From Marsupella aquatica (Eukaryota > Plantae > Marchantiophyta), in the NCBI GenBank assembly GCA_973895155.1, contig OZ316897.1, positions 522,515-586,514 of the forward strand: DNA of 64,000 nucleotides, given 5' to 3'. The position numbers and the translations under genes were made by a program. Positions 31,634 through 58,514 of the stretch are shown piece by piece; positions within the stretch are counted from its first letter, which is position 1; each line of letters starts with the position of its first letter. Below the pieces are notes generated by a model that did not search any database, was not told the DNA's origin, and saw only the letters and a program-made list of their open reading frames with translations.

Positions 31634-34543
31634 TGTTGACCCTGGTTTGAACTCTATGCAAGAGCCCAAGTCCACCGTACATGGCGCGTTAGGTCATGAA
31701 TCCTTCAATAAACATCTTTACGTGTCATCTACTTGTGGATGCACTACACGGTCTGTAAGTTTTTCTTAAGTCAGAGTAAGTTTTTCTTGAGAGAAACAAG
31801 CTGCAGGCCTGGACATTGCGTTGCAGAAATGCGGTGATACTCACGGACGCACGCAGGGATGCACGTTAGTACTTGTAAGTTTTTCTGTCGAAACAAGCCC
31901 AGACATTCAGAGAAACAAGCCCCGAACATCGCGCTGCTTAATTTGGTGTTACCTTGTTTTTTCATGTTCGATATTCAGCTTGTCGTGCGCATACACATCG
32001 CTACACAACATACATCACTTATCACATACATCCAGACATAGTCACACTGCCACATCACAAACATAAGAGAATGGAATACAAGTGGAACTCATGTCCACAC
32101 ATGTCCAAAACCCATAATAATCTCAATACAATCGGCACAACGATCCCGGTCCACAATACCCCATCGATCCCGCACCGATCTGATCACACATGTATGTCAA
32201 GCCAACACACCTTGCACTACTCAAGGAATCCACGTTACACAAGCGGAGCTCACAACCACCATAGCCACACTCAAGCTCCTCTCTCTCCAAGGCTTAACAT
32301 TGAAAGATGACCTTTCAATGCCTCACAAATGAGAAGTACCCTCTCACACAAACCTGACGGAACCTTATCGGCTCATATAGCACACATACCAAACATACGG
32401 ATCTAGATAGTATGATACACTCTAACACTACCTAGAATGGTGTGACAACTGTCGTGCGCATACACATCGCTTGTCACATATATCCAAACATAGTCACACT
32501 GCCAAATCACAAACACAAGAGAATGGAATACAAGTGGAACTCATGTCCACACATGTCCAAAACTCACAATCGCCCCCCTAGCTGGGAGTAAGGTCCCCTA
32601 ACTCTAGCTAGCCATGAGTTCTATAAGGTTGATATACACCTTTTTAAGTGTGAAGATCAGGAGGCCGGGTGCAAGTGAGCCCCATCGATCATCTACTTGC
32701 AATCCATATCTGCCAAGAGAACACAAATGATAACTAGTCGGCTTCACCGACACTGAGGACACAACCATGATCCACTAGGAATCACCTACAATGGTGGTGT
32801 CAAACATGACATGTGCCATCCTCTAGAACACTTATCACAAATCAACATAGTAGCTGCTCCTTGAGCAGATCAACACAACATACATTTCAAGCCAGCACGA
32901 ACATGTGCCAAGCTTGGATCTACTGTACCATCAATGTTGGGAAGGTGACATGGTGCACAGTTGCGCACATGATCCTTCCAAACCATACCATCGCGTCCCT
33001 CCAACATCAGGACACCAGAAGGCAACACTTCACGCACACGTAAGATTGTTCGGCCTGCGGTCACATCAAGTGTTGTGGGTGCTGTCTGCTGCAAATAAAT
33101 ATAATCACCAGGATGAAATCGTCAAATGTTTGCATGGTAACCTCCTCCACGAATAGTGGCATACCTCAAAGTATCATGATGTTGGGCAATGGCAAGGTTG
33201 TCAAAAGCCATGGGCATCACTCTCTGAAATACCCGTGCTCTCTCTGAACACACCTTGACCCAAACTTAAATAGGATCATCCAAGTTCACAACTGGTGCAA
33301 CATCACGACGAATAGCTGCTGGCAAATCTGGCTCTCTACCATAGAGCAAAAAGTAAGGTGAGAAGGATGCAAGTAATGTTTGCCAACTGAAATGGTAGCC
33401 CATAGCTAACCAAGGTAGCTGGAGATCCCAATCTCCCAGATGACCAACCTGCAAGCCATACTTATGCAATCCTCTCTTCACAGTTTGCACAACTCTCTCA
33501 GCTAATCCATCTGCCTCAGGATGATCACGAGAGGTAGTACGATGATCAATCAGAGCTTGTTCACACAAACTCTCAAACTCTCCACGGAACTCAGTTCCCT
33601 GATCAGTCAACACCTCAGCTGATGCTCCAAAATGACTGAGTACACGATCCAAAAATGTAGCAGCAACTCCTCCACTGGCTTTATCTAGCAACGCCACTAG
33701 TTCAATTGGAGAAGTGCTCCACCATGACCAAAACATACCGATTATGACGTTGGGTAAGAGGTAATGGACCAGCAAAATCCAAACTCCAACGATATCCCAA
33801 ACCCATGATCGGCAACGGGTGCAACTAGGGAGTGGGAGCATTAAATGATGCTCTCACTCTATCACATACCACACACTTAGCTATCAACTACTGGACATGA
33901 GTGTGCATAGTTACCACGCCACCAATACTGTGTTTGCAGCAAGCTGTAAGTGCACTTCACACCAAAGTGACCCAACTCCTCGTGTACATGTCGCACCAAA
34001 TGTACTCGTTGTGATGGTTTTGGTACCACCAATACCCTACCATCATGCAGTACTCTCAAAAGATGGTTTCCCTCCCATCAAAACCTCTTGGCTCTCTGTA
34101 GAACCCTGTCACGTTCTTTGGCATCAACATTGCCAACAATAGAACCACTACGCAGATATTCGAACACTCTCACATCATTATGAATATCTTGTTGTTAAGA
34201 AGTTACCTCACCAACATCCACATCTGAAGACTCATCATCCACTCCATCCAATGAGATAGAGTCCACAGATCCACTGTATGCTGGCACCCAACAAAGAAAG
34301 GCAGATGCATGCCATCCTAGCACCATCTCCTTATCTGACTCATCATGCCATCTGGCTCTAGTCTCATCCTGCTAACTGGTACATGGGTTGCGGCTCAACC
34401 CATCTGCATCCAAGTTCACCTTTCCAGGTCTATGTACAACCTGGAAATCATATTCCTACAACAACAATGCCCATCTTGCAAGCTTCCCAATGAGCTTGTC
34501 AGACTCCATTGACCACTTGAGAGGATGATGATTAGTGATCAAA
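31634..34543 (-). mobile_element. 3' half of a Ty3/Gypsy element: RNase H C-terminus, integrase, C-terminal PHD finger, PPT and ~935-bp 3' LTR (~31634-32568)
   Basis: LITNHHPLKW...GKLARWALLL...NLDADGLSR, HEELGHFG...YWW, VLTDQGTEF, DGLAERVVQTVK, FSPYFLLYGREP; PPT aggggggcgat then TGTGAG at 32568; probable LTR end ...GGGTCAACA at 31634 (less certain). Confidence 0.9.
32744..32884 (-). other. PHD finger (C4HC3) at the Gypsy integrase C-terminus
   Basis: CMLC*SAQGAATMLICDKCSRGWHMSCLTPPL*VIPSGSWLCPQCR*, continuing the frame of ORF 32870-33094. Confidence 0.9.
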
Positions 34544-35299
34544 CACTACTACATATTGGCCCCTTTTGCGAAGCTTTTTTTTTTACGCCGGGATGGTCTT
34601 GCGATGTCATCGACTTCAGATATTTTGTGATCAAACACGCATCACAATAAACCATGCTCAAAGGTTCGCAACATGGTGTTGCGAAGCTAAATACCTCGCA
34701 ATTTTTTTGAGATTGGATTGAATTCGCAACTCTTTCAGATACTATTCGTCTCGCAAAGTGTTTGTGGATCCGCAACCATCGCGACTGCATTTGGATCTCT
34801 TTTGTTTCATAATTTAGCGATAATAATGTACTCAAATATATCTTGTGAACCTATTAGCTTCGCACAATATTGTGAAGTATAAATAGTCGCAAGTTACCGA
34901 AGCCAGTTGATTCGCAAAGTTGAGAACCCATTGGCATCACAATTACCGATGGTGTGTTATTCACAAAGTGTTTAGAAGTTGCTTCTTGACAAGCTTGAAA
35001 ATGTTTTGCAAAGAGAGTTGTTTGAAAATTTTGTAGAATGGAAATGTTTGAGAGAGTTTCTTTACAAGATGGAGAATGCATGTGTTTAGGTTACAGCTAG
35101 GGTTTTCAAAAAGGTGGCATGCATGAGGATAGCTTTGGAAACGGCTAGGGTTGCCTATATAACAGTGAGATGAAATTTTAAAGTCCAATTAAGTGTTTGT
35201 AAAACAAAAGAAGAAAATTAATATGTTAATATAAATAAAACCATGATAGTTAGTTTAGGGTCAAATTCTGGGCCCACAACAAGTTTTACTACTAGTGCA

Positions 35300-38200
35300 T
35301 CAAACCTGGTCCTCATCCTCTCCTCCATTTGACACAATAATAACGTCAGGTTTTTCCGAGATAATGGAACGGGACCGTGGCACATACGGTATAACAACTG
35401 ACCACTCTAGGTCTGGTGGGTACGGAATATAGAAACACTGCTCAAGGTGACTTGGGAATGTAAATGGTTCAAATGTTTGCCAATGAGATGGTTGAAAGCT
35501 AGTTGCTGATGTCTTCCGAGTAAACCCACACTCATCAAGAAGTACCGTGCGATTATCACCAACCAGGTGAATTTTGAACCACTTACACTTGAAGACATAC
35601 TCTTCAAATTTGGAATCGGCATCATAGGATATGATCAAGATCTCCTCAATCTTCCCATAGTGAGGCACCACATCTCTGATCACATTAGTGTCATGACGGC
35701 TACTTTGTGAATCTTGCATGAACTGCCCTTGAACTCCACAATCAAAAGTTCTTCCCCTCTTCTCATCAAGGTCAGAAATCCTGAAATGCCTCCCTTGTGT
35801 CCACATTGCTGTTCTGGTCTGAACAAGTCTTAAAGGACCATGAACAATTGTTCGAACCTCAGGAGTCATATCTGGAAAATGTGATACATTCTCACCTTGG
35901 GCCACCATAGCATCCAACTGAAGTACTTTCTCCTTCATATACTCAAGGAACTTTGGAAAGATCCTTGGGCGACGACTCTCCCTCTTTGCATCCTCATAAA
36001 ACTCTCTCCAATCTTCCATCACATTGCTGTTACTCAACATGAAAGTACTAACCTGTGTCAACTCCACTGCGGTTAGTAAGCGTGTTTTTTTTGCACCTGT
36101 TAAACGGTCCTCCTCCACTTCCCTCTCTTCCATCCAAGTGCGTGGACAACTAGGATCAATGGTAGCTAAGATGTTACTACAATAAAACATACTCTTAGCT
36201 GCCAAGTATCCAGTTGCCATGCTCCCCTCCACTCGTGCATGGTTCCGTACATAAGCCTTTAACACGGCCATATACCTTTCCAGCCAATACATCCACCTAC
36301 AATGCACCGGACCGGCAATGGCAACCTCCCTCACAAGATGAACGAGAAGATGCACCTGACAATCAAAGAAGGAAGGAGGGAAGGCCTTCTCCAACTTGCA
36401 TACCACCTTTGCTGCCAATACCTCCATCCGTGGTATCTCAGATTCTTCATATATTTCCTTTGAGCATATCCATCTCAACAAAGTGCCCAATGACCAAAGG
36501 GCGTCTTGCACTTCTTCACTCCCCAAACCTATGATTGCCACAGGAAGTATATGTTGTAGTAAACGATGATAGTCATGTGTCTTGAGATACATTGGCCATT
36601 TATGACTGTCCTCCATCCCAAAAGCCTTACGTAGATTGGCACCATAGCCTGTAGGAAACCGCATCTGCCCTATGCGTTGTCGAAACTCTCTTCTTTCACC
36701 AACACTCAAAACCCATGGAGCTGAAGGACGATGTTCCATCCCTGTGGATTCATCAACTGTTATCCATACATCTGGATGTCGTTCTAGATCCTGGCATGCC
36801 TCCCTAAAATTAATGTTCTTTTCCCCATAAAAGTGCTTGATCAAAGCCTTCCCAACATTTCCCTCTATATGCATGGGGTCTAACAAGTGATGAATCTTCA
36901 ACTCAGGCCAATAGGGCAAAGTGGCCAGTATACCCCACCTTGTCAATCCACTACCATAAAATCCCATGGCATCTTCAGGGTCTGCCACCCTATCAGCTAC
37001 GGATTTCCAATACAAAAATGTTGTGCGGTCAGGTATCTCACGCTCATCACCATTGATCATGTCAAAGTTTGAAAACAAAAGGGGGTCAGACCTCATGTGA
37101 TGCCCAAGTGGAAGAAACTTGGTATGACCAAGGTAGATTATCTTGTGCAGCCATTTTGAGTACTTGGCCATATCGTGAAGGCTTGGACCACAAGTGGAGC
37201 ATGCCTTGTACCCTTGAGTTTGGAACCCAGAAACAAACCCAAACCCTGCTCACAAAATAACATTCTCAATTAGCGTCAAAGGAATTGAAAAGTTCATGTA
37301 CATAGAATTAAAGAGGGACTTCCTTCCAAACAAACTTGATCTCCAATACATGAAAAAAATACAAATCCATACCACTCACTTGGATAGTCATGCATGGTCC
37401 ACATAATGATTCCCTTCAATTGGAAGACACGTGGTAACCCTCCTGTAGTTGTCCGACCATCATATGCCCATACACCCCCCCATAATTTATGGAGTTCCCC
37501 AACCAAGAGCGCCAAGTAGGTGTCCATGTCTTTTACCTTAGATGGACCTGGGATAATCAATGATAGCAATAAGAATCCCTTTTTCATGGACAACCATGGG
37601 GGAAGGTTGTAATTCATAACAACCACCGGCCAAACCGAAGTAGGGCGCCCTTTCCCTCCAAGGGAGTGTGGGCTTACCCCATCTGATGCCAACCCCAACC
37701 TCACATGACGAGGGTCACGTGCAAATTCTGGCCATTGTGACTCCACATGCTTGTGAGCAGGGGAATCAACTGGCAACCGCATGACACCAGCCTCTGATCG
37801 ATGTGTCTTATGCCATACCATCAATTCTGCCAAGTCAGAACATCGGTACATGTGCAACAATCGAGGAATAATAGGAAACCAACGAACAGCTTTTCTAGGC
37901 ACCTTTGAGGTCAACATGTTGGTTTCATATCGAGGCTCTTGACAAATTGGACACTCAGTTGCGCTGGCATTGGTCTCATGATAGAGAATGCAATCATTCA
38001 CACAAGCATGAATGATATGGTATTCCATGCCAATGGATGATAGAACCCTCTTTGCCTCCTTCCAAGTTCCTGGCAACACATTTTCACTAGGTAACAAGAG
38101 ATCATGGCAAATTGCAAACAAATCCGATAGTAGCGCATTGCTTGCCTTGTGTTTTGCCTGAAGATTCATCAATGCCAAGATGGCAGATAGTCTATTCAAA

Positions 38201-39726
38201 CGAGCACCCCCATAAATAGGTGTTCTAGCATGTGCCTCAGCTTCTTCCCATTGTTTTTGTCCTTCAGGTGTACGTTGAGGCCTTGGATCATGTGCAACAT
38301 TTGGTGGAGGGTCTCCTTCATTGGGTGGGACACCTCCTTCACCACCAATGTCTACACCAAACCAATCTGTCATGAAGTCATCCATGGCTGACTCTTGGTC
38401 TTGCATGACCTCATAATCTGTCCGAGGTGCCCCTTCATCTGGACTGTCATTATCATTGTCACTTGATGAGGAATCTGCTGATGATGTTTCCCCATCTTGT
38501 GGCAAGCCCATTTCTTGATATGTAGCTCTCAACCTCCTTGGCAACATATCTTGACTAGGCCGCACATTCTATAGAAAATACAATAAAGTATTCACAATGA
38601 AATTAACGCCAAATATAGTAGTGCTCGAAACATATTATTAACAATATAAAAAGAACATGTCATTACAAAACATACGTTCACATACGATGAACGTATAATA
38701 CATGTCCCTAAAGTAATCCTAATCCCATTCATAATGTGTAAACAACTCCTCTCCAACCAGAATGGTCCTATTAGCTACAACTAGACAATGGTCATGATGA
38801 TATCTCTGCCCATAAGGGGCTGGAGGGGGACCATCAACAAAAACCCATTCACAGTTTTTCCTACGCTTAGGCCGGGTCCCCACAGTACTGTTGATGAAAC
38901 CGGCAATATTCCCACTACGGATGGGATCACCATCAATTATACGCTGGTCACAATACTTTCTGGTGCAACCATCAAAAGTATCCATGTCCAATGCATAAGT
39001 CTTCCACTCAGGGTGTCGAACTCTTGACAACCCAACGTCTTCCCCAAACTTCTATCTCCTCACCATAGGTTATATCACATGGCAAACCAAGGCACTCCGG
39101 GTTCCAATCCTTTATGATAGGAACACACTTCCCTGTGAAGGTACAAGGGCCCCATCTACCATCAACCCTACAAGTGTACTGATCCACTTCCCCTCTAGGC
39201 TGTCTTTTTGACCTTTTTTTTCCCTCTTGTAACAATACCGTCACCCTGAATTGTCCCAACACTACCTTGCCCTGCTGCCACTAAACAAAAAGCTTGTGAA
39301 AGTGCCGAGCCTATAGCATCTAGAACTCCTTGTGAGGGAACATAGGGTGTTGGTGTAGTGGGTGTAGGCCTACTAGATACCTATAGGAAGAAATGGAACC
39401 AAGTGAGTGTGATGAACCTCCCAAATTTTATTTTATGCTACCTAGCAAGATTTACAAAATAAAATGGAAATCACAGTAAGTTTACAACTCACCATACGAG
39501 ATGAAGAAGCTCCCGGTGTAAGACCTCGATGTTGGCCATATCGAGCAATGTGCTCCGCACATACATATGACTTTTGGACAACCATCCCCACACATTTTTT
39601 ACAACCACAAAGTTGGCGTGGTGGACCACTAGGTCGACGTACGGTTGGTTCAGGTTGAGGAGGAGGATGACTTTCTTCATCGGAAGAGGAATCTGATGTG
39701 GTGGAAGTTGTAGAGGATGAAGACAT
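35300..39726 (-). CDS. CACTA TnpD-like transposase (Transposase_21 + DUF4218 + DUF4216 type); exons 39726-39493, 38568-37380, 37245-35300 (~1122 aa)
   Basis: IHACVNDCILY, ECPICQEPRY, RHVRLGLASDG, NYNLPPW, MHDYP, GYKACSTC, LDPMHIEGNV, LKTHDYH, HLLVHL, RWMYWLERYM, FKCKWF; GT-AG junctions restore one continuous frame. Confidence 0.9.
38719..39280 (-). pseudogene. SET-domain exon of CACTA copy A (155-bp internal deletion)
   Basis: IDGDPIRSGNIAGFINS...KNCEWV...LVVANRTILVGEELFTHY; deletion relative to copy B positions 62985-63139, bounded by gttcgac/gttcaac. Confidence 0.8.
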
Positions 39727-40159
39727 CTGACAAGTATAGCAATTGGAAGGCGATTAGTAAAAACTTCACCAAAACCATCATTGATAATCCCTACCTAAAC
39801 ATATTAAAAAGAATTGACAGAAAAATACCTTTATGAGACCCGGGCTTAGCAATGCCTTGACGGATCTTGTGGCTCAAATTTCATGAACCAAATTTGGAAG
39901 GAGGGGAAAATCTGCCAATATACAATGAATTAAGCCATGCCTTATGGTGAACCAGAAAAAAAGGATGATAGATTGTAACCCTCCATATTTACAGCAATGA
40001 CTAGAAATGCATGAGAAAATGTTATACCTTTCAGATGCCCGGGCTCTCGCAAGGCATTATCATGCATTAGCCAAAACTTTAAAAAATATGGGGAAGTGCC
40101 CTACAACGCCAAAGAGTTTTCCTCTCCATGTTAATGAGATAGACAAAGAAATATAAGTA

Positions 40160-41100
40160 ACCCAAACCCTACCCTAAACCCAAACCATGAAATGAAACCC
40201 TTCATTAAAACCTAACCCAAATCCCTCAATCACCCTAAACCCTTACCCTTATCCTAACCAATACCCAAATCCCTCATTAAAAATTCAAACCTTTACCCTA
40301 AACCCAAACCCCTACCCTAAACCCAAACCATGAAATGAAACCCTTCATTAAAACCTAACCCAAATCCCTCAAGCACCCTAAACCCTTACCCTTATCCTAA
40401 CCAATACCCAAATCCCTCATTAAAATTTCAAACCTTTACCCTAAACCCAACCCAAATCCCCCAATTACATATAAAACTCTTACCCTATCTACACCTTACT
40501 TTACCTATATAGGCCAACCCCCACCCCTATAGTTATTCTAAACTTCACCCTAACCCCTAAATTGAGGCCCTTTTTTAAAACTTAAGCAAAAATTGTACCC
40601 CCTCAATTAGAACCAAATCCAACCCTATATCATGTTACACCCCAACCCAAACACTTACATTAGAAACCCAACCCCTTTAAAAAAACCACAATTAAACCCC
40701 CCAACTAAAAACCAAACCCAATCCCTTTAAAAAACAACCACAATTCAACCCCTCAACTAAAACCAAACCCAACCCCTGTAATTACTCACAACCTAATGCA
40801 AACCTCTACCTTGAACCCTAAGCCAAACCCATTAATTTAAACCCAACCCTTTTATTCCAACCTAACCCAAGTTTTAACCCCCTTAATTAAACCAAATACT
40901 CCTAGATTAAAACCAAATATAAACCTAACCTTTAATTAAACCCAAACCTTTGTTAACTTATATTCTAGTTATCCTTACAACCCAAACATCCATTGACACC
41001 CCTTCCATGTTAACTTATGGGCACTTAACATACCTTAAATGTCGTTTGACAAACCTTAATAGCCGTTTGACACCCCAAAGTGTTTTCCAACCCTAAACCG
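40160..41100 (+). repeat. C-rich degenerate telomere-like (CCCTAAA/AAACCC) tract between the divergent CACTA genes, with a ~143-bp duplication
   Basis: Dense aaaccct/ccctaaa/aaacccaa motifs; mirrored in copy B at ~60900-61840. Confidence 0.8.
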
Positions 41101-41443
41101 ATAAGACCTGCCTCGCAAATTATTTCACAAGTTAGAGAATATTTTTGCGAACCTACGACCTTCGCACTTGCTTCGCAATAACAGAGGCCGAGAACAATTT
41201 TTTGGGTCTTCTGCGGGTTGCGATGGCTTTGCGAAGGGAATAGATTCGGAAGTGCCTCGCAAGTTGCGAGACTATTTGCGAGGGCACGGGCTTCGTAGTT
41301 TCCCATGCGTATGTCATTGCAAACCCGTTTTTGAACGGCGTAAACATCGGCGGGAGCTCGCATTCGGGCTCATTTCAGTTTTTGAGCGAGACGAGAAGGG
41401 CCGGGGCGCAACAGTACGAGGGAGACTGTGAGAGAGGGGAGCT

Positions 41444-43489
41444 ATGGCTACCGGTGAGGGGAGTGGAGGGCAAGGTGGTAGTGGTAGTGGTAGTGGCAAT
41501 GGGGGAAATCCAGAGAATGAGAAGAATGCCTGGGCAGACTTAGTGGCCCAACATCTCAGTGCTGCACAATTGGGAGAAGTGAATCTCAATTCTCCAGCAG
41601 GGCTTGCCTCTTTGAGTGCCATTCTTGGACAGGTTTTGCAAACTGGGATTGTAGCAGGACAAGCTACTAGAGAGGGGGAGGAGAGGGCCGCAGCTGAAGA
41701 GAAGGCTAGAGAGAAAAAAAGGAAGAGAGAGGAAAGAACTAAGTCGGGAGTTGCCTCTCCTCAAGCCCTAGAGAAGCAGAAGAGAAGAGAGGAGAGAGAT
41801 TCAATTCGAAAACAGAGGGAGGAGCAACGTCAGAAAGAGGAAGCAAGAAAAAAACTTCCATTCATTGCCTTGGAGACGAGTGGGACTCCAACTGAGCTAG
41901 CATATGCAGGGGCTAAGAGCACAATCAAGCAGATTATCACAAGCAATTTCTCACGAGGCATGCAGTGGGGGAAGATTGAGAAGGCAGAGCGAAAGAGGGT
42001 CATCAACCAAATCAAGGATGCATTTTGCAATGGGCCTGACATAGATGAGCAATGGTTGGCAGATAAGATTTCAAATTCTATGTCTCAAATGCGATACCAT
42101 GACAGGATGAAGATTAGAGCCCACCTGAAAGACTTGAGATCATACAGGAACTTGCGCAGACCCCTCCACTTCACCGAGGACATCTGGAATTTGTTTTACA
42201 AGATTGAGGTGCAAATTAAGGCAGCTCACGAGTTGGAAGAGTGGAAGGGCAATCTAGATCGAGCCTTGAAAGCAAAGGAGGCCGGGAAGCTCCCCCCTAA
42301 CCACGACCTGAAGCCACTTGAGCAGAAGGTAGCTGAGATGCAGAAGGTGGCCGACCAGGAGGGAAAGCCACCCAAGCGTTTCACAGATGCAGCCAAACGA
42401 GTGAAATCCACCCCCAATCCAGTCCACAAGTTGGGTCAAGGCGGGCTCCCCGGCCTCAAGACACACTTTGTGAGTGCCTCTTGCTCCTCCCTAACCTCTC
42501 TATTCCTTTCAGAGTTGTGCAATGCAAGTGAATGACATCCCCGAAGGTTCTTGCTGTTGTGCATGCTTGCTTGGTTACTAGTTTAGGGCAACTCTGACAC
42601 TTAGAATTTCTGGCAAATTTTTAAAAACTCTCGGGAACACATTTTGCGAAGGTGTTGCGATGCGTATTTGTTCGCAAACCCCTCGCAAAGTCTATCATAG
42701 ACTTTTTCCATTTCAATTTTCCGATGCCTTTGCGAACAAATATGCATCGCAAACTCCATCGCAACGCCTTCGCAAAAAAAGGTGGTTCGCAAGTTGCTAT
42801 GCTTATAGGTTCGCAAATTTGAATTTTAAATTTTTTTTGGGTCATGTTTAGTAGTTGAGGATTTAGGCGTCACTTGTGGCTATAGGGTATGCTTAAGGGC
42901 AAATTTAACCAATTTTAATTGGTTTTATGCATGGCAGTATCGGAGGTACAAAAGGAAGATATCAAAAAAGCATATTGAGGTGGCGATAGAGCATGGACGA
43001 AAGTACCTCTTTGCGATGGTAGATGCCGAGTTGGCTACTGTAAGTGTCTAAGTGTGAACCATATGATTAGCATGCGAACATTGTGAGTGACCCTTTATGT
43101 CTTGCGGAAACTAATGATATGTAATGGATGCAGGATTCGGATGAGCCTGAGGGGTCGGGTGCTGATGTGACCAGTAGTGATGACGATGAGGGGGCTACTC
43201 CTGGTACTAGTGGTGCTCGGGGGGGAGTAGTCGTGAGGTAGGTTCTTCCCACCGTGGTAGTGGTGGTAGTCGTGTGTCATCAGCACACGTTGATGACCAG
43301 GGGGAGGAGGAGGACCCTGAGGATGAGGAGGAGGAGCAGGAGGGGCAGGAGGAGCCAGAGGAGCAGCAGGAGCAGGAGCAGGAGCGCCGACGGCCATCAC
43401 GCACCCGTCACCAACAGGATCCCCGGAAGGATAAGGGCAAGAAGCCAGCCAAGAAGCCAACCAAGAGGAGCCGCAAGAGCCCATTCTAG
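41444..43489 (+). CDS. CACTA accessory (TnpA/ORF2-like) protein; exons 41444-42469, 42938-43039, 43134-~43489 (frame break at a G7 run ~43219-43225)
   Basis: Coiled-coil N-terminus, W..I...ER....I helical region, HKLGQGG motif typical of En/Spm accessory proteins, GT-AG junctions, acidic/basic tail. Confidence 0.7.
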
Positions 43490-45233
43490 TTATTTTGTAG
43501 AGATACATGCATGAGAGTGACTTGTCATGCCGGAGCTTAGGGTAGGAAGAGGCAGCATAGGTTTAGAAGGGCGGACCTAGCATCAGATATTTCCCCCCTC
43601 TTGTCCATGTATAGGGTTCTTTGAAGCCCTATCATTTTGTTCATGCTTTTCCATTTTATAAAACAACAATTTTGCCTTCCACATTGGGTTCCAAGGAAAA
43701 CCCCTCGCAAATAATGTATTGAATCCTGTGTGATCATAATTTTGCGAACCCTTTAAGAACTCATTCCCATCGCACAATATTAACCCCAAGGCGTCGTACT
43801 TTTTGAGTCAATTAACTTCAGAACTTCAGATCCAAATATGTTGGGTTTTTGTGATACTTCTAGGATCGCACTTTCCTAATCGCAACCGTTCACAAACTTC
43901 TGAAATCACCGGTATCGCTCTTTGTCATACAATCCCCATCAAAACAATTGAACCAGTATCAATCGCAAATATGATGCGATGGTAAATCCGTCTCAAATAT
44001 TGACGCCCACGCGGGACGTGTGCGTGTATGTTTGCGAACCTTATGCGACGTATAATGGATCGCAGAAGTATTGAATATTGCGAACCTCTCAGCTTCTCAG
44101 TTTGCCATGATGTTGCGATGCCGTTGCGATGGTCCGCGTGCGAAGTTATTAGGTTCGCAAAGTGCGAAGGGGGTGCGATGCGCGTATGTTCGCAATAGCC
44201 AGAATTATGAAAATCAGGGGCTTGTTAGTTGTGATGAGATTGTCTTCGCAAAACGGGCCGATAGTGTTGTAGTGGATAACAATTTTTGGGCACTGTATTT
44301 TCAATGAGAACTGGGGAAATATCCCAGCACATACTTTAGATTAACAAAAGCACTGGGGAGGAACCTCTGGCCGTAGACAACTGATGGTCCTGTGTGTCTA
44401 CAAAGCATTGTAACAAAATGAGGTGGCTACTTGAACACTACTGCCAAAGATTGGGTCCAGCAGGAAGACACTATCGTGGTGTCGCTTCAATCCTCCCACC
44501 AGCTCGGCTTGTATGCGTCGGAGTTGTTGTTGGAGTCGCTAGAACCAACGCCCCAGCGAAACCCACCCCAGTTGCCAGACGAGTCATCGGTCGACCCCGA
44601 GTGGTCGCTCTGCTCCTCCTCCTCACCCAAAGAACTTTTGGCCGGGCCATGTGACAGATGGGAGGTCAAAACCTTTGCCATTGATCTAAGGAGAATGTGC
44701 GCTGAGGGTGGCACCTCCACTTTACACTGAAAAGGAGTATTTGCAGTCAAAGGAGTCGGTCGGGTCTTGACGATTGCTTTCCCCTTGGCCGTGATCGGGA
44801 CTGCCATTACTCGAGTTGAAGGCATCGCAATGGCCTTCTCCAAAGCGCCTTTGCTAGCAATCTTGCTAGCAAAGGTCACCTTTCCCTTCCCCTTCGCTCA
44901 TGGCGGAGCCATCAGAGTAATCAAAAGTTCACCCTAAACTCCTCAATTGAAAGCGGAGCGGTGAGCGGAAATGTGAGCAGAGTGCTTTGTGCAAACAATT
45001 GTGACAGAGAGAATGAGAAATGAAGGGCGGAAGAGACGGCCAACTGGTTTTGGAGGCAAAGCTCAGGCGTTCCGAAGTGCATATGGATGTCTGAGATGCA
45101 CCGGGAAAGACGACTCATATGCATCGGCCGATATTTGATATCTATTGTGCGTGACAAATTTATTGTACACGTGCGAATTGGGACTGAGTCATGAGTTCCG
45201 TATGCACAGCCAGCCAGGACATATTCCGTACAC

Positions 45234-45541: not shown

Positions 45542-45737
45542 TCTATGGACCTGTCAGTTTGTTAAATACATCCATTAAAAAATGACACAAAAAATTGATT
45601 TACGTTGTCCAAACGCTTAACGTATCTTTCTTTGTCATTATCCAATATTCATCTTTATTGACGTTATTAACCTCGTATATCAAACGAACCTGAAACCGAA
45701 AGGCTAAGTGAGGCATCCATTATTGTCTTCCGCTGAA

Positions 45738-48700: not shown

Positions 48701-48960
48701 CGCCTGAAGAATGTCTTCTCCCGTTGAAAAGTGACGTAGCTCCAGGTCTTTGGCAGCTCCGACGCACTTCAAAACGCAGTGCTGGTCCAGCTTGCAATGG
48801 GACGCTCGGTTGGAGAGGGAGCTGCGATGAATGTCAAAATTGAGTAAAGAAGACTGGGTTTCCAAACCCAGAAGGAGTTGTTGCAATATCTGTAAGAGGA
48901 TGTAGACTTTTTAGAGGAGAACCTCATCCTGACCAGATATGGTTTTGCCCAAACAACAAA
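45738..48960 (+). pseudogene. Mutator-like (MULE) transposase with GCM-type zinc DNA-binding domain, disrupted; intron ~47728-48075
   Basis: YNGNVVFELPP, CTGSLECRNNSC, CHHC..P..C...CPA, HMGFHNHP; core SF(N)VMHR, GFMA(V)NAQAGWNAVR, AFHFYQS, WLSWW, LESVHA; frameshift ~46250 and stops at 47660, ~47703 and 48412. Confidence 0.75.
47776..47982. repeat. Four intronic copies of the TAGCGCCNGGCGCTA-type palindrome (three at 61-bp period)
   Basis: tagcgcctggcacta 47776, tagcgccaagcgcta 47837 and 47898, tagcgccaggcgcta 47968. Confidence 0.85.
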
Positions 48961-49459
48961 TGAACCCCATTTAAGGAAAACCAAACTTTGGAAATTCCGA
49001 AAATCACTAAATATTATTATTTTAATAAAAAGGGGGCAACATGACGCGTGGCTACGCGTGAAACCCTAAAAATGACTGCAATGTCACATTTTAACCAATT
49101 CAACTTGATGGGACCAAGAGACATGCTCACGCGAATAATAACAATAGAGAAATAAATCTCTGAGATCCTTTATATATGATAACCAGTATATAAGGAGTTT
49201 ACAAATGGTTTCTAGAACGACAATACAAATTAATCTGATCTCATGCCGACTATTATTTTGGAAGCGTCCTAAATTGGGCGTCTGTTAAATTGCTCTACTA
49301 GATATCTATCTCCATGCCTCTGAATCACAGGGTCTTCCCATAGAGTATGATTATAATCATAATCTCTAAAAATAGATTTAACTGACCAATCAGGATAATC
49401 TCTTCCATTAGCAATGACAAGCGGCTCACAAGAGTTTGCTAGCTTGCTAAGATACGGAA

Positions 49460-49930
49460 TCAGAAGTTAATCAGGAAACTGTCGTCGACCGACCCAAAAT
49501 ATTTGGGCGGAAATAATGATCCAACAACAGGATCTAAACAAGCATGAAATGCATCGGATTCGATAAGCATTATATTTTGCTGTAGATACACCTTCGTATA
49601 AATTCCAACCTTCTCAAAACACTTCAAAAATATCCGCTTATTTGATGTCACCCCATCGCATAAGTAACAATGAGACTGATCCCAAATATACTTAAATGAG
49701 GCCATTTCCATCGCAGTAAAAATAGATGCTAAAATTTGATCTAAAATGTTCTTCCCAAGAGAGGACCAGATCCCTACATCAAAATTCTCAAAACAGAATC
49801 TCAAGAATTCATGAAGATGAGGCCTTGGAAAAACGTATATATTCCCAATTTGAATTCCAGTTGAGACCGCCATCAGTCGGGAATGCGGTGCAGTGTAATA
49901 GAGTAGATGCTCCACGTCTAAAACTATGAG
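49460..49930 (-). CDS. NIF/FCP1-like (HAD) phosphatase-domain exon or fragment, probable TE cargo
   Basis: LDVEHLL...RPHLHEFLRFCFENFDVGIWSS...YIWDQSHC...FLK...NIMLI; the canonical DxDx(T/V) motif is degenerate. Confidence 0.7.
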   Translation of the reverse strand, partial: LIVLDVEHLLYYTAPHSRLMAVSTGIQIGNIYVFPRPHLHEFLRFCFENFDVGIWSSLGKNILDQILASIFTAMEMASFKYIWDQSHCYLCDGVTSNKRIFLKCFEKVGIYTKVYLQQNIMLIESDAFHACLDPVVGSLFPPKYFGSVDDSFLINF

Positions 49931-50199
49931 TCCTCAATCTCAAAACTCTGTGAAAAGGCACTTTGTGACATTCTTGTACATTGATTCATGTCTTTGACCA
50001 ATCTAGTTTATTGTGTGCAGGTGTTCAATTTGATGACTGCGCAATGCACATGGCCCATGATTCTCAGTGGCAAGTAAACTTGCAACTCCTCCTTACCGAA
50101 TACTAGTTCTTCTTTGTAATACCTATTGCTAATACTTGTAATATTTATTTGCTAATACTTAATGCCTTTTCTAGTACCTACTTGATAATAAATACTCAT

Positions 50200-50630
50200 A
50201 GTACCTAGTACATAATACTTAGTCAAGTATTAAATACCTTAAGTACCAGTACTAGTTACGTATGTACCAAGTACTCAGTACCATAAGTACGCAGTACCAA
50301 CTTAAGTACCTTAAGTACCAAATACTCAGTACTTTGAGTACCTAGTACTCAATACATAATACCAAGTACCTAAGTAAGTACCTAGTACTCAGTACCTTAA
50401 GTACATAGTACCTTGAGTACATAGTACCAAGTACCAATAAGTACCCAGTACTCAGTACCTTAAGTACCCAGTACTCAGTACCTTAAGTACCCAGTACTCA
50501 GTACCTTAAGTACCTAGTACTCAGTACCCTGAGTATCAAGTACTTATACCTTGAGTACCTAGTACTTAATACCGAGCTCAATACGTTGAGTATTTGGTAC
50601 TCAAGACCTGGCTTTAGTACTCAGTACTTG
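50200..50630. repeat. AGTAC-rich minisatellite (23-bp unit tacccagtactcagtaccttaag)
   Basis: Near-perfect units at ~50442-50520 within a longer degenerate tract. Confidence 0.85.
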
Positions 50631-52123
50631 CAGTCCGACCCAATACTCAATACTATAGCCTAGGCTAATAGTTTTATACTGAGTGTTTGATGTAGTGGGT
50701 GTTGTGAGACTAGTAGCTATATTGCAAAAGCAAGCCACTGATACATTTTAACTGCTGGACCTATCTCTTTTTTCATGCAGGTGATATAATGAGTCTCTCT
50801 TTGTTGCCTAGAGGCACGACAACCACTACCCTTGTTTGGCTAGATATAGATATAAATTATCATAAATTTTAGTCATGTGAGTTGTGGCTAGCGAATTAGC
50901 TAGTTGAGTAGTGGCCACAGGACCATTGTGTCTTTGTTCAAGAGCATTTTGTGATCATGCTTCCGTTTCAGAATTAGCTTGAAATGCAAATTGAACCTTG
51001 TCTATCAAATCTATAAAAGTTCTCATCAAATGCCAATGGATGTCCATATTCTTCTTTGTTGCCTTCCTGGACCTCTGGTGCAACTTTAATTATCTCAATT
51101 CGGTGATCACCTTAGTCTGTTCCTCCTGTTCGGTTTAGTGCCTTAGTTCCCAGAACTTTGCAAAGGGAAGCAAATTTTAGCTCTCAACCTCCATCCAGAT
51201 CTTATTACCCCCATGCATGTTATAGCATACTGTAACTACTTTTCCTAAATTAAGCACTCGTCCATTCATGGACCCAGGTTATTCACAGTTCATGTTGTCT
51301 TTTGAGATCTGCCTTAGTTTGATTTATTTATTTCAATCATCAAAGGAGGAGCATGATTGTTTCACAGTACCAGTATGTACACTCATTCAGTTTTTTCCTA
51401 AGTGAGTGTACATACTGAGATCACTATGAGCATCAATGGCATTTTCTATTCCAAGGCAAATGATTGCTATGAAGGGTTCACTTTCTAAGGTTTCTCACAA
51501 TAACTAATTGCGCTAACATCTACATTATGATCCAAACAACAACCTGGATATAGGTTGAAAGCTTGGCATTGTTGAAGGCCAACATTTTGGACTATAAACA
51601 AAAATTAAACTCATTCATTGTTTCTTCATAAACACGAGTCACAAACACTCGCTCAGTTTATTTATAGTGCAAGTCCTGTTGCTTTCAATAGTAAATGCAA
51701 TACCATGCAGACTACAAAATTGACTGTAACAAATCCATGTAATCCATTGAACTGTTTGGCCTGTAGAATTCAGTTCACTTTTCCGCGATTAAAAAAACTA
51801 CTCTAGCAATTGTCAAGTAGGCAACTCTATTTCTCTATAGTTTCCAATATATCAAGATTTGTACAAAATGAGACATCTTGTAGTCACTCAATTTATTTAT
51901 GCAAGCTAGACTTTAGCTTTGTACAGTAAATCAAGTACTCACAGGATACAAAATTGATTGATTGTAACTAATCCAAGCAGAGATAGAAAGAACCACACTA
52001 AACTGTTGGGGCCTGTAGAAAAATCGGGCCACAAAATCCGTATGCAAAAACACTACTGCAAAAATTGCAGCTCTATATATGTCTCTACAATTCCCAAAAC
52101 ATTCTCCTCAGATCACCTCATTC

Positions 52124-52770
52124 CTAATCTAAACCTTGATGGCGAAGTGCAACTAAAATACCCTCCAATTGGTCCAAAAGGATAGATCCTCTTGGTACAA
52201 GGGATCTTTCCACATTGGTGGACCTTGGGTGGGATCTAGAAACTGTCACAGTGAGAGGCCAGGGGACCCAACTATGGGTAGGAACCCCAAGGAGAGACAA
52301 AATTTCCACTGATAGTACCCCATCTTTTGCAGCCAAGGCCACTGAGCACCTTCGTCACTGCAAGGCAACAGCCCGGACGTAGTCCATCTGCTCCTGTTCG
52401 GTGCAAGCTCGTAGGTCTGAAGCTCCTAGCCCCAACCAGACTGAAGCGCTATCCCGAATCTCAGCACGAATGGGGGTTGCCTGCTTAAACACCACATCAA
52501 CAATCACAACTTCAAAACCATATGTATCAACACCCTCCCCTGCATGGCCACACACCTGCCGGCCGAGCTCCTTTGATGTGCCACAAATGCCTCCATGTCC
52601 TAGCCGATGTGAGCATGCTTTATAAATAAAGCGCCGAGGATGGGGGAAGGTTGAATGAAAGTTCACAATATGAACCACGACATCTTGAAATGAAGCAGAC
52701 TGCCCTGCTTCCACGACCTGCTCAACTTCTGTTACAGGAGTCCCCATTCTTCTGCGTCAACAAGATCCTG
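52124..52770 (-). pseudogene. RPA1 C-terminal-like OB-fold/zinc-ribbon fragment
   Basis: FIYKACSH...CG......C...YGFEVVIVD....AEIRDSA..WLGLGASDL resembles the RPA70 DBD-C pattern; stop at 52355. Confidence 0.55.
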
Positions 52771-52879
52771 CAAAACTACAAGTCCAATACTCAAATCAAT
52801 ACTCAAGGATTCCCGATGGATATTCAATGACAAAACCTTGCTTGCACTAGTACCACAACATGACACACAATCCTCAAGG

Positions 52880-53150
52880 GATTACACTACTACTCACAGG
52901 TATTGAACTAATACTCGCAGGAATTTGAAACAATACTCAAACGCGTTTACATAATACTCAAAGGTATTTACATAATACTCAAAGGTATTTGCATAATACT
53001 ACAAGGTATTTACATAATATACTACACGGTATTGTGACAATACTACAAGGTATTATGATAATAATACACTGTATTGTGATAATACTCAACGGTATTGAGA
53101 TAAAACTCAACGGTATTGAGATAATAGTACTTGAGGTATTATGAAAATAC
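52880..53150. repeat. 22-bp minisatellite (ataatactcaaaggtatttac-type)
   Basis: Successive 22-bp units at 52930-53140. Confidence 0.85.
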
Positions 53151-53566
53151 CAGGGGAAATTGACTAACACCTGAAACTCTTATAGTAATACCTTATTGTA
53201 TTAGACTAATACCCGAAGGTACTAAACTAATACTTGGTATTAGAGTAACAGTTACAGGTACCAGGTAAATACTCTGTGACATGAAAGCACAGCCAGAGAA
53301 ATTACTTGAGTCTGGTAGTGCATGTAAAGTGAGTATTCAAATCTACATAATATGCATGTATGAAGTGAGTGAACCCTAAACCACATAAACCTGTGACAAT
53401 ACATAGAAATTGACTGGTACAAAGGATGAGCAATAGGAGAGTAAGAAAATTTACCATCGATGCATCCACATTGGGTATCTAGACAGACATCTAGGGTTCA
53501 TGAATGCTCATAGGCAGACGACAATGTCAACATAGTAGTCCTATTTAAATTACTCAGTCTCACCTA

Positions 53567-54892
53567 TTACAATTTCCTAGCTGATCCACGACCTCTTCCT
53601 CGTCCTTTGACAGGTGGTTTAACCTTTTCAACTGACTTTAAGGCAACATTACCACCCTTGTCATGAGCAAGATCCAATCCTAGACTGATAGCAACACCCC
53701 TTAACTTCCCCTTAGCTTGAGAGGAGCTTGTGCCATTCTTCTCCTCGGCCTTTCGCTTTTTGCTACTCCCCTTACAAGACTCAGAGCCAGGCTCCTCGCC
53801 AGGCTCAGAGTCAGAGACATTCTCCACCTGAGTGACCAAACAAGGTTCTGGAGCAGCACCCTTTTCGACCTTCACAATTGAGAGATTCACCTCGCCCTTG
53901 GACTCCGGGGCTGATGTCTGCGTTTGAACTAGAGTAGGAACTGACTTGATGTCAACTTTTGAGACCCTCAACAACTCATGGTGTACATGTGCAGCTTCAC
54001 CAACAGCCTCATGATATTTGATAGACTTCTTCACACTTTCCTACAGCGCAAAACAATATCCCACAATTAGCAATTGACCAATATCCCCGCTAATACCAAT
54101 GTACGACAAAGCTAGATCACTAAGGCTCTTTTGAAAAGAGATAGATTGTTCTTCCAAACCCCAATCATCTGCTAGCTTCACTACATCTGGATGGTCCACT
54201 CGGGATGAGCCCCAGCACTTCAGCCAGGCTAGATGAAACACTTCAGCACAGGCTAAACACTTAGGAGGTTTACTGTCACCGTTTCGAAGCAACGGGAACA
54301 AACAACTTGGATGATAGCAATGTCCACACGATGTGGGAATCCAATTGTTACAAAAGAAGCCAAGAGAGCAAACACGGCAACCTCCACCTTTGGCAACCTC
54401 CACAGTGTATGGTTGAAACTTTCCGATTCCGTCCAGCGCATAGGTAAGCATGGCGATGTCGTCGGCAGGAATCCCCTTAACACCATCCTTCTTGTAGCCG
54501 TTCTTCCCAGACTTGTTCCCAAAATACTCCTCCAACACCTCAGCGGACACGTCTTCACTTGTGAGCTCCTTCGGAATGCTTCCCACATTGGGCAAGCCAA
54601 GGACATTGTGGAAATGATCGATGTCCTTCACAAACTCATCAATTGTCCACTCTTCTGATGAGGGGACCTTTACAAGACTCTCACCGTGTGATTTCGGTGG
54701 TAGCTTGTGACTCGTGGACTTTCCAGGCATTTCAGAAGACATACCTACTGTGTAGCTTGAGTTCTCCCAGCTGCTCACTCCAAGCGTTGGCAACAAACTA
54801 TTTGGGCACAAACCTGCGCTATGCGACTCCGCCTGAGTCCCTTGAAAGCACGTTACTCCAGAGTCTGACTCGTCCCTTCCAGTGCCTTGCGC
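53567..54892 (-). CDS. RING-finger protein with basic low-complexity C-terminus (multi-exon or pseudogene, probable TE cargo)
   Basis: CRVC...TSCGHCYHPSCL...KCLAC; acceptor taattcag|gc at 54893/54892; the second ORF 53567-54034 is in the same frame. Confidence 0.65.
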
Positions 54893-55678
54893 CTGAATTA
54901 CAACACAAGAATGTGAGTTCAATGTCGAGTCTCATTTGAAAAGATTGAATGTGTGCCTAATGCGTGGCCTAGATCATAGAAGACATTCAATATTAAACAA
55001 GTGGGGAAGAAAACAATCAGAGCAACTTTCTGAGTGTCCTCAACTTTCAAAATTGTAGCTCAGGTCCTGTAACTCTTCAATCTCCACAACACAAACGAGA
55101 ATGCAACAAGTTCCAGAGATTCAAATGCTTGCAGCCCTCGACCAAAAGCAACTTCCTGCGCCAAAATGCAATGTCATTCCCTCCCGCGTTCCCTCCCTTG
55201 CTACCTAATCAAGGATCACAATGTTGCGGTCTTCTCCAACTGGCACATTGCGCAACATTCAAACTGGAGTATGCATCGTGAAAGTTGATTCAACGCGACA
55301 AAAAGGAAATAGAAAGGAAGTGCGCACTTTGCGCCCAGGTCTCCCTTGATTGCAGGCAATGCTACGGTTTGGATCATCCTTCTAGCAGGAAGGGTCAAGA
55401 TCCAACAATGCTACTCCCTCAACCACCACCACTGATCTTCATTGCCACCACGGCACGGTTCGGATTTGCTGACCTTTCTAATTTTGAAATGATAGGAGGT
55501 TACGGTAGTAATGTCTTTTCGGCCCTTCCTCCCTCCAACGTGATTGTACTTGCAACAACCTCCTCCCTCATCATTACATGACTTGTAGTACTAACTGTAC
55601 TATGAGCTCTGTGGTAGGGGTGGTATTAGGAGGGGTATTATTTTGCTCAAATTAGACCCCCTCTAGCTTGCTTTTGCC

Positions 55679-56210
55679 TTGTTAGGTGATGATCATCATC
55701 GGATTGTTGCCAATGTTCACCAGGTGAGGTCTTGGATTGGACCTGCTATGTTATTGGATGCTGCACGTGTGGGTTCTCATGCACATTGTCCACGCTTGTG
55801 GTGGACTAATCTGATCCCATGTGAGGTGCTGAAGCGCGCATTTGACAACATTCCACGCTCACCAGCCTTAGTGGTGGATAATATTTTGGATCCAGGACGT
55901 CGTGCACAAGGTGTGATCCAACCTGATAGACCTCCATTGGCAATGGTCAATGCAGTTGGGCACCCACGTTGTGCATTACTCACTCTTGTAAGCCACTTTG
56001 CTTCATATGCATTCAGAGCAGGTGGCCCTGGACTTGTGTGGGACACAGCTCTCCAGCAGTTAGTGGAACCTACTGCTGATGAGAGAGAGCATGCTATGGG
56101 ATTTTTGACTGGCACCACTATAGTTGCCTTTGTGCTAGAGGGTTTGCAGCGCCAGGTTCTTGGTCAAGCAATGGATCTGAATTGTTTGACTTGGATTATC
56201 AGCTTGGGAG
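55679..56210 (+). other. DNMT3/DRM-like C5-cytosine methyltransferase domain (motifs VIII-X) in the Gypsy pol frame
   Basis: LDAARVGSHAHCPRLWWTNL (motif VIII), EPTADEREHAMGF..GTT (IX), QRQVLGQAMDLNCL (X); same frame as RT ORFs 56441 and 56642. Confidence 0.82.
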
Positions 56211-57730
56211 TAGCTGAACAGTTGCGGATGCGCTCTACTGGAATTACTGATTGTCCCTTGGTGAGCTTGCGGTCCACTAAGACAGTACTGACCACAGCTG
56301 GGGGCAAGCAGACAGTCCATGGACCTATGGCAGGATTGGCCAAGGCTGGACAGATTGTTGAGCAGGAAGGGACTGCTCAATCTACTACTAAATAGCAATC
56401 ATCGGCTATCTCTTCTACCCTACAAAGAGATATTAGGGATTTGGTGGAGAGTTGGGAACCACAGCTTGGCCCTAAGTTGACAGGGGAGGAGAGACGTCGC
56501 ATGCATCGATTCCTGAAGAGTTATTGGAATTGTTTTGCATTTAGCATGAAAGATATGGGGACATTAAAGGGTCCTGGTATTCAGATTGAATTGGCTAGTG
56601 ATGCGCCAATCTTTCATATCTGACCATACCGTTATAGTGACATGGAGAGAGCTCTGATTCAAAGCAGAACTCAAGATTTGTTGGAGGCTGGATTGGTGGA
56701 GATTTCATATGGGGAGTATGCATCTGCCATAGTGATGCCAGCCAAGAAGGATGTGCATGGCAATTACACAGATAGGCGCATGTGTGGTGATTATAGACCC
56801 ATTAATCGCCAGACAAAATTTGATAGATATGCCATGCCCACACCTGAGGAGATCTTTGATGTTGTGGGGCATGCAAAGGTTTTCAGTTCATTGGATCTGA
56901 GGGCAGGGTACCATCAGCTTCCAATTAGGCATGCTGATAGGTCCAAGACAGCATTCTGGGGGAGTGATTCTTATGGCAAAGATCGTTTGTATCAGTGGTT
57001 ATTCTTACCATTTGGGTTGAAGAATGCACCAGCTGAGTTCTAGAGAGTCATGGATCGAATCCTTGCAGGTTTGGATTTTGTCAGATGTTATATTGATGAT
57101 ATTTTGGTCTATTCTTCTACTATGGAAGAACATTAGCAGCACTTGCAGATTGTGTTGGAGAGATTGAGAGCACATGGGTTGGAAACTCCATCCTAGCAAG
57201 TGTAAGTTCTTCCAAGACCAGATTGAGTATTTGGGCCACACTATATACCCAGGGGGATTGGGTGTACAACAAACTAAAGTGGAGGCCATTACACAGATTC
57301 CTTGTCCTACTGATGTGAGCAGAGTTCATGCATTCTTGGGATTGGCGAGCTACTACAGGAGGTATGTTAAAGGATTTAGCCAGCTTGCTAAACCTTTAAC
57401 CATACTCACTAAGTTGGATCAGGAATGGACTTGGGGTGATGACCAGGAGCATGCCTTTCAGGAGTTGAAGCAAAGGTTGGCATCATCCCCTATTTTGAGA
57501 AGACCCATTTCAGGCAGACCATTTAAGCTACACACTGATTGGAGTGGAGTAGGACTTGGAGCAGTGCTGACTCAGAAAGATGATGAAGGGCATGAGTTTG
57601 TTGTGGCATATGCCAGTAGATCAAACAATTCAGCAGAAGCTAAGTATAGCTCTTATGAGGGAGAGTGTTTGGCAGCAGTGTGGGCTGTGGCACACTTTCG
57701 CTGTTACTTGTTTGGTAATCCTTTCACTTT
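55679..57730 (+). mobile_element. 5'-truncated 5' half of the same Ty3/Gypsy element: C5-DNA-methyltransferase C-terminal part, RT, RNase H N-terminus
   Basis: RMCGDYRPIN, LDLRAGYHQ, PFGLKNAP, YIDDILVYS, FLGLASYYRRYV, LHTDWS, VAYASR, YSSYEGECLA; ends at FGNPFT|CACTA. Confidence 0.93.
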
Positions 57731-58514
57731 CACTACAACACTATCGGCCGGTTTTGCGAAGACAATCTCATCACAACTAACAAGCCCCTGATTTTCATAA
57801 TTCTGGCCATTGCGAACATACGCGCATCGCACCACCTTTGCACTTTGCGAACCTAATAACTTTGCACGCGGACCATCGCAACGGCATTGCAACACCATGG
57901 CAAACTGCGAAGCTGAGAGGTTCGCAAGATTCAATACTTGTGCGATCCATTATACGTCGCATAAGGTTCGCAAACATACACGCACACGTCCCGCACGGGC
58001 GTCGATATTTGAGAAGGATTTACCATCGCATCATATTTGCGAAATATATTGGTTCAATTGTTTTGATGGGGATTGTATGACAAAGAGCGATACCGGTGAT
58101 TTCAGAAGTTTGTGAACGGTTTTGATTAGAAAAGTGCGATCCTAGAAGTATCACAAAAACCCGACATATTTGGATCTGAAGTTCTGAAGTTAATTGACTC
58201 AAAAAGTGCGATGCCTTGGGGTTTATATTGTGCGATGGGAATGAGTTCTTAAAGGGTTTGCAAAATTATGATCACAGAGGATTCAATACATTATTTGCGA
58301 GGGGTTTTCCTTGGGACCCAATGTGGAAGGCAAAATTGTTGTTTTATAAAATGGAAAAGCATGAACAAAATGATAGGGCTTCAAAGAACCCTATACATGG
58401 ACAAGAGGGGGAAATATCTGATGCTAGGTCCGCCCTTCTAAACCTATGCTGCCTCTTCCTACCCTAAGCTCCGGCATGACAAGTCACTCTCATGCATGTA
58501 TCTCTACAAAATAA

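Follow-up and report, generated by a model that had tools for sequence, protein, structure and literature searches.

A probable 13.5-kb inversion between two inverted CACTA copies separates the pieces of a Gypsy element with a DNMT3-like domain in the liverwort Marsupella aquatica

How could two pieces of one retrotransposon come to lie on opposite strands, each ending exactly at the terminus of a CACTA transposon? A 64,000-nucleotide stretch of Marsupella aquatica DNA (assembly GCA_973895155.1, contig OZ316897.1, positions 522,515 to 586,514), hereafter called the window, raises this question. The window contains no N and passes through whole high-copy repeats. It holds a middle piece and a 3' piece of a Gypsy element carrying a DNMT3-like methyltransferase domain and a PHD finger, and two copies, A and B, of one CACTA family (Table 1). 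An earlier note on this DNA had proposed that a single Gypsy element was split by a CACTA insertion and that an interval of approximately 13.5 kb was then inverted between the two CACTA copies. A 13,456-bp inversion indeed accounts most simply for the three visible junctions and is probably real.

Junctions of the split Gypsy element

At the left junction, AAA at 34541-43 is followed by CACTAC from 34544, the other end of copy A reads GTAGTG to 44274 and continues with GAT, and at the right junction TTT at 57728-30 is followed by CACTAC from 57731. All three visible junctions are thereby confirmed, as are the positions at which the earlier note let the minus-strand Gypsy piece start and the plus-strand piece stop, and the unmatched AAA and GAT flanks of copy A are seen directly. 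The Gypsy ribonuclease H (RNase H) sequence halts at 57730 on the plus strand and picks up at 34543 on the minus strand, and the two pieces correspond to positions 4-77 and 76-105, respectively, of the Pfam RT_RNaseH profile. We compared the element with 80 metagenome loci, searched with separate translations of the plus and minus pieces. The RNase H pieces abut without a gap in 43 of the 44 loci that have both pieces downstream of the DNMT domain, and the change from the 57.7-kb (+) to the 34.5-kb (-) piece falls at the identical residue in all ten relatives tested that have a single open reading frame (ORF). A contig with a loose end from sequencing run X3 likewise shows a family member that reads on as unbroken RNase H. 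The relatives thus agree with the proposal that the two pieces, joined with one TTT, form a continuous RNase H. Because the pieces abut exactly in the relatives, exactly three bases (TTT) were duplicated, rather than resembling each other by chance, and this 3-bp duplication was split between both Gypsy pieces.

The CACTA...TAGTG termini are present at both ends of copy A and at the near end of copy B. Aligned over 6108 columns from the 44274 end of copy A, copy B is its reverse complement at 98.0% identity; 83 of the 120 substitutions are transitions, several indels occur, and the longest unbroken identity is approximately 510 bp. A 155-bp deletion private to copy A at approximately 39016 lies inside the identical tract listed in Table 1. 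The three junctions and the inverted copies support the proposed inversion of about 13.5 kb, the interval between the copies being 13,456 bp. The Tnp2 protein of copy A comprises the domains Transposase_21, DUF4218, and DUF4216, and its division into two frames is likely explained by an intron near 37250-37295; a family contig traverses the frame change without gaps. Both CACTA copies also contain a strongly skewed tract of telomere-like TTTAGGG/TTGGG words, at 40100-41000 and 61100-61900.

Table 1. Coordinates of the Gypsy pieces, the CACTA copies, and the associated features in the window.
Feature	Position	Strand	Remarks
Gypsy 3' piece	31981-34543	-	RNase H end, integrase, PHD finger, repeats B1-A2-B2; decayed (the first frame read has 7 stops)
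Repeat B2, element 3' terminus (ends CA)	31981-32118	-	shares its terminal word with the ends of L046 and L049
Inferred repeat A2 (starts TG)	32119-32447	-	by position between B1 and B2; partner A1 not in window
Repeat B1	32450-32570	-	after polypurine run, 177 bp past PHD; 92.5% identical to B2 across 107 bp; 3' edge placed by eye
PHD finger	32747-32896	-	after integrase; Pfam PF00628, E 6.7e-12; two in-frame stops
TTT duplication, one copy	34541-34543	-	AAA on +
CACTA copy A	34544-44274	-	9731 bp; both termini; flanks AAA / GAT
Tnp2/TnpD transposase of copy A	35300-38568	-	PF02992, PF13960, PF13952; two frames
A/B identical tract	A 38935-39526 = B 62473-63218		591 columns, ~510 bp unbroken, shared non-family letters
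Inferred inverted interval	44275-57730		13,456 bp; repeats and fragments of transposons only
Mutator (MULE)-like transposase ORFs	45708-47723	+	ESM Atlas score 0.95 against a cluster in which 61% of members are MULE; no Pfam match
ORFs with RING-like finger	53567-54931	-	Atlas best 0.84 (lead only); in low-copy repeat abutting the Gypsy break
Gypsy middle piece	55679-57730	+	C-terminal half of DNMT3-like domain, reverse transcriptase, most of RNase H; 4 stops, 1 frameshift
TTT duplication, second copy	57728-57730	+
CACTA copy B	57731-64000	+	inverted relative to A; leaves window; end predicted at ~67,610 from the length of A

The reading of a single Gypsy element split by a CACTA insertion remains the simplest one, but re-inversion would leave the element incomplete: a second break, at 55678/55679, lies within the DNMT domain. 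For 19 of the 20 relatives covering the start of the DNMT domain, matching begins between 55676 and 55700 (the twentieth begins further in), and loose ends of contigs from runs X2 and X4 at 55679 read on toward the ENV motif. The absent 5' part amounts to approximately 4.55 kb and includes half of the DNMT domain. Neither Gypsy 5' sequence nor a 5' long terminal repeat (LTR) was found within the window by blastn, tblastn, or tblastx, and the 5' half of ten relatives gave only two short tblastx matches to the window, both in the 3' non-coding part. The 5' half probably lies beyond copy B, if copy B inserted into the sequence interrupting the DNMT domain, or else has been deleted. A 30-bp word, 93% alike, occurs at 31356-31387 (+), about 600 bp past the Gypsy 3' end, and at 55647-55678 (-), at the DNMT break. 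The two words may represent the terminus of two related DNA transposons; their outer eight bases agree at six positions, probably by chance. We rejected the idea that the words at 31356 and 55678 bound a single element inserted in the DNMT domain, as no Gypsy 5' half is left of 31356.

Origin of the inversion

The earlier note had left open whether ectopic recombination or aberrant transposition inverted the interval. We favor ectopic recombination between two separately inserted, inverted CACTA copies, to which we assign a probability of roughly two in three. According to this scenario, the Gypsy element would have inserted and decayed before other elements and an older CACTA copy, the latter at a TTT site, inserted into it. 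Next, a younger member of this CACTA family would have been inserted in reverse orientation at an ATC/GAT site, at a distance of 13.5 kb. The two copies would have paired as a fold-back, with gene conversion over about 0.5 kb, and a crossover, probably located in the 3' third of the CACTA, would have inverted the interval and swapped the flanks. The visible copy B would then derive from the older copy and the 5' part of copy A from the younger one. The TTT duplication pair is exchanged between the two CACTA copies, and the corresponding ATC partner is predicted near 67,610, beyond the window.

The evidence for two insertions of different age comes from a comparison with short-read contigs of the family, assembled from the four best (X1-X4) of 12 sequencing runs listed, with no RNA run listed among them, and covering the best 40 of 90 rows of matches plus selected contigs. 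Contigs without any difference from the window at 44540-45264 (X4) and 44776-45107 (X1) suggest that runs X1 and X4 originate from the same or a very close species. Against six X4 family contigs (3033 bp), copy A differs at 14 sites and copy B at no fewer than 47 (binomial p = 3e-5); copy B is approximately three times further than copy A from the family contigs. Before the identical tract (before 62473), copy B has lost 37 CG/CHG cytosines and copy A 16 (p = 0.005). Among the matches listed, all eight differences between the family and copy B at 57995-60718 are private to copy B, and 15 of the 20 differences between the family and copy A in the overlap are absent from copy B, the other five being shared. 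Since A and B diverge unevenly from the family, two insertions of different age are favored over transposition in one step, and A and B probably differed already at the time of the rearrangement. The 591-column identical tract, with a permutation p of 0.00075 when the whole overlap is considered and of 0.043 for just its distal part, holds three of the five shared variants (among the matches listed) together with a shared 1-bp insertion, which suggests gene conversion between A and B. The unpaired 3' part of copy A differs from a family contig by 1.1% (8/735), compared with 0.46% (14/3033) for the 5' part; this is the direction that a chimera would give, and the difference is marginal (Fisher p = 0.057).

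Several points weigh against ectopic recombination as formulated here. The crossover that the earlier note suggested seeking in the nucleotide differences between A and B was looked for, and the comparison of mutation loads revealed no switch between the two copies. After the identical tract, copy B has lost four CG/CHG cytosines and copy A two, that is, there is no polarity switch, and chimerism is unproven. The fourth junction, at the distal end of copy B near 67,610, lies outside the window. The family comparison is confined to the selection of matches described above, from runs that may represent another individual or species, and the test on the tract was chosen post hoc, after the data had been inspected. 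Letters shared by A and B could also reflect a subfamily, and unequal methylation could make two once-identical copies decay unequally. Finally, an assembly flip, judged from contigs only, retains a small probability. Of the two mechanisms proposed earlier, recombination gains from the uneven divergence of A and B, but its crossover point is unseen. Two candidate positions for the switch were discarded. One, near 60.75 kb, had been based on the direction of C-to-T changes and was dropped, as an X4 contig at 60712-61302 differs from copy B at nine sites and from copy A at four; the other, immediately after the identical tract, is unsupported because copy B still lost more cytosines there.

An aberrant transposition in a single step, known as hybrid element insertion, is the alternative closest to recombination. 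Here the Gypsy-resident CACTA would have contributed ends from two sister chromatids, which inserted together 13.5 kb away and thereby yielded the inversion and the second copy at once. The flanks that such an event produces are identical to those of recombination (PMC2775673), and both the failure to find a crossover switch and the non-family letters shared by A and B in five of the 20 rows listed are consistent with it. However, copies made in this way should begin identical and share all older mutations, whereas most variants of copy A are absent from copy B, copy B is much further from the family contigs, and the shared letters are concentrated in one tract. We therefore consider a one-step event unlikely. 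An inverted duplication of a Gypsy::CACTA composite, followed by a transposase-driven deletion at the 5' end of copy A, would make the two pieces remnants of two Gypsy copies. The absence of the Gypsy 5' half from the window is in keeping with deletions or further rearrangements at this locus, or with a remainder outside. Nevertheless, such a history needs a deletion ending exactly at the CACTA terminus, the duplicates should share older mutations, and self-comparison within the 64-kb window detected no Gypsy coding sequence present twice, which makes this explanation scarcely probable.

Assemblers are prone to flips where breakpoints sit within long inverted repeats. An interval misoriented in this manner would conceal a real chromosome with matched flanks on both CACTA copies, and, besides the evidence being confined to contigs, no piece spanning a CACTA copy is found among the matches listed. 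Mis-assembly is nonetheless unlikely because A and B are 2% divergent, with several indels and no more than about 510 bp of unbroken identity. Moreover, a window without N that runs through whole high-copy repeats presumably implies long reads separating the copies. None of the three junctions was found among the joints and pieces of runs X1-X4, among the matches listed, which is no evidence either way.

Inversions mediated by transposable elements with exchanged target duplications are already known, and the present case is a new instance. The closest parallel is the Galileo inversion 2z3 of Drosophila buzzatii, with two oppositely oriented copies of one terminal inverted repeat transposon at the breakpoints and exchanged target duplications; there, too, recombination and hybrid element insertion predict identical flanks, and chimerism tells them apart (PMC2775673). 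Unlike Galileo, the elements described here belong to a CACTA family in a liverwort, the inversion spans only 13.5 kb inside nested transposons, and three of the four junctions are visible with chimerism unproven (PMC2775673). The Vandal5 hk4S inversion of Arabidopsis resembles our case in that a plant DNA transposon is tied to an inversion splitting a coding sequence into opposite-facing halves. It differs in that one transposon end inserted and the other stayed, as its authors infer, without a target duplication, whereas two copies and a 3-bp duplication are present here (PMC5113708). No comparable inversion in a CACTA family or a liverwort lineage was found by title or abstract among the CACTA papers listed. 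The inversion is a clean example of a known mechanism; involving 13.5 kb of transposon debris with no recognized gene, it matters little alone, and the Gypsy lineage carrying DNMT3 and PHD domains is of more interest.

The Gypsy lineage with DNMT3-like and PHD domains

The Gypsy copy in the window is dead, as indicated by its stops, its frameshift, and a CpG ratio of 0.24-0.35. It shows the Gypsy order of reverse transcriptase (RT), RNase H, and integrase, and its polyprotein contains what is, by similarity, a DNMT3-type domain. Only the C-terminal half of this domain is retained in the window, and this half alone has no Pfam match. The closest relative (P0001, 75% identical) finds its best match in the Protein Data Bank in DNMT3A (E 3.6e-11), with DNMT3B also among the best structure matches, and the catalytic motifs LFGG, WPC, and ENV are kept in the relatives. 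In 27 of the 80 loci, the DNMT domain is followed within 8 kb by a PHD finger on its own strand, many of the remaining loci being too short, and 13 of the 47 proteins found with the DNMT query carry one. The earlier note had tied the DNMT and PHD domains to one element by way of the inversion. They do belong to the same element, but the tie is independent of the inversion, as intact relatives carry both.

There is no canonical LTR pair, and the 3' non-coding region has no partner elsewhere in the window. Instead, the element has split repeats in the order A-coding-B-A-B, an arrangement that resembles KnitGypsy-Dnmt3 and that the earlier note had missed. The B repeat recurs 452 bp after the first B in the window copy. 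Such B-B pairs are found in seven of the 23 loci with room after the PHD finger, six of the seven with an offset of 177-182 and a spacing of 453-477, and A-A pairs in three of the 13 loci with room upstream. The A1/A2 pairs belong to L046, L049, and L057, and also to L004, whose A2 is cut by the contig end. Most loci show neither pair, by decay or because of another layout, and in the three most complete relatives only the A part is repeated at the 5' end. The 4-bp match CATA on either side of L046 and L049, which are possibly one locus, suggests insertion of the integrase type.

Named matches to the DNMT domain come from Marchantia polymorpha, Calypogeia fissa, Sphagnum fallax, and S. troendelagicum, in addition to one short contig labeled as bacterial. 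In a quick version of the DNMT tree, built without P0019 and P0020 and without the short or identical hits among the loci, the window sequence falls into a 62-row group (SH-aLRT 96) with Marchantia, Calypogeia, and S. fallax proteins; no sequence named Klebsormidium occurs in this tree or among the 20 and 47 matches. The DNMT domain lies between RNase H and integrase (RT-RNase H-DNMT-integrase-PHD) in nine of ten polyproteins tested, namely P0160, P0163, P0167, P0168, P0171, P0173, P0176, P0177, and P0179. The order DNMT-RT-RNase H-integrase is found in P0159 and in bryophyte loci, and the existence of two orders suggests shuffling or repeated capture of the DNMT domain. The summed contig depth of the Gypsy piece is approximately 100 to 500 times that of a low-copy flank in X1, X3, and X4; depth is no copy number, and the values hint at an abundant family.

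Annotated proteins of Marchantia (P0004-P0007, P0009, P0154, and P0156), one of them labeled cytosine methyltransferase, match the DNMT of this retrotransposon and may themselves be frames derived from retrotransposons. P0011, a DNA cytosine methyltransferase on a 2.4-kb contig labeled Obscuribacterales bacterium, also groups with the retrotransposon DNMTs and is likely mis-binned plant or algal DNA.

Gypsy elements with DNMT3 are already known from Klebsormidium. KnitGypsy-Dnmt3 of Klebsormidium nitens has DIRS-like repeats; DIRS elements are described in that paper as A-coding-B-A-B, the Klebsormidium layout being the same, and the activity of its methyltransferase was inconclusive (PMC5890265). 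The Marsupella element resembles it in combining a DNMT3-type methyltransferase in the Gypsy pol with DIRS-like repeats. It differs in its land-plant hosts, as seen from the DNMT-domain matches of Marchantia, Calypogeia, and Sphagnum, and in the PHD finger after the integrase; the word PHD is absent from the text and supplements of the Klebsormidium paper, and its Fig. 4c could show the domain (PMC5890265). A 2026 preprint (10.64898/2026.05.21.726589) already mentions Gypsy-DNMT3 in "streptophytes", a term that may extend to land plants or not. Among the papers listed, no title or abstract describes a DNMT3-Gypsy in bryophytes or with PHD, a coverage that leaves aside most subscription papers and all figures, and the accessible parts of PMC11244446, PMC12885004, and 10.1101/363937 contain nothing on DNMT3-Gypsy in bryophytes.

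Taking these comparisons together, we tentatively propose, at somewhat less than even odds, an abundant split-repeat Gypsy lineage spread across liverworts and mosses and undescribed in land plants. It would carry a DNMT3 writer, located upstream of RT or else between RNase H and the integrase, and a PHD reader behind the integrase; the PHD finger might choose the chromatin and the DNMT methylate the element's own new copy, and some cytosine methyltransferases of Marchantia would be its pieces. An element of the Klebsormidium type is now seen in a liverwort and in many loci grouping with a Sphagnum protein, and relatives of its DNMT domain are annotated in Marchantia. Because the latter is amenable to genetics, the role of retrotransposon methyltransferases could be addressed in a land plant.

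The inverted interval and other features of the window

The interval between the CACTA copies is mostly multi-copy in runs X1-X4, and no host gene was recognized in it. At 45225-45579 and 47772-47983, 71-bp tandem repeats upstream of the MULE-like frames have a 20-bp word in common with inverted downstream copies, in the manner of subterminal binding sites. A NIF phosphatase fragment at 49460-49933 (-) stops at a repeat boundary at 49932, where family contigs continue with different sequence; a terminal partner of the repeat edge at 49931 was sought without success.

Outside the interval, a 776-codon open frame at 2340-4670 (+) contains an internal 288-bp repeat and has no Pfam match above the cut-off. 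A Copia element at 23093-29829 (+) has LTRs of approximately 108 bp that are 98% alike and start with TA rather than TG, and it is flanked by the 5-bp duplication TATGG. Two intronless genes in single frames encode an ERGIC3-like protein (9319-10515, +) and a PALP-family protein (14033-15505, +). Compared with the ERGIC3 frame at 9319, a protein of Calypogeia fissa is 88% identical, that of Marchantia 73%, and those of mosses and vascular plants 60-66%, which by itself makes a liverwort host likely. Since Calypogeia has two ERGIC3 proteins, with 88% and 75% identity, the frame in the window may be an old retrocopy.

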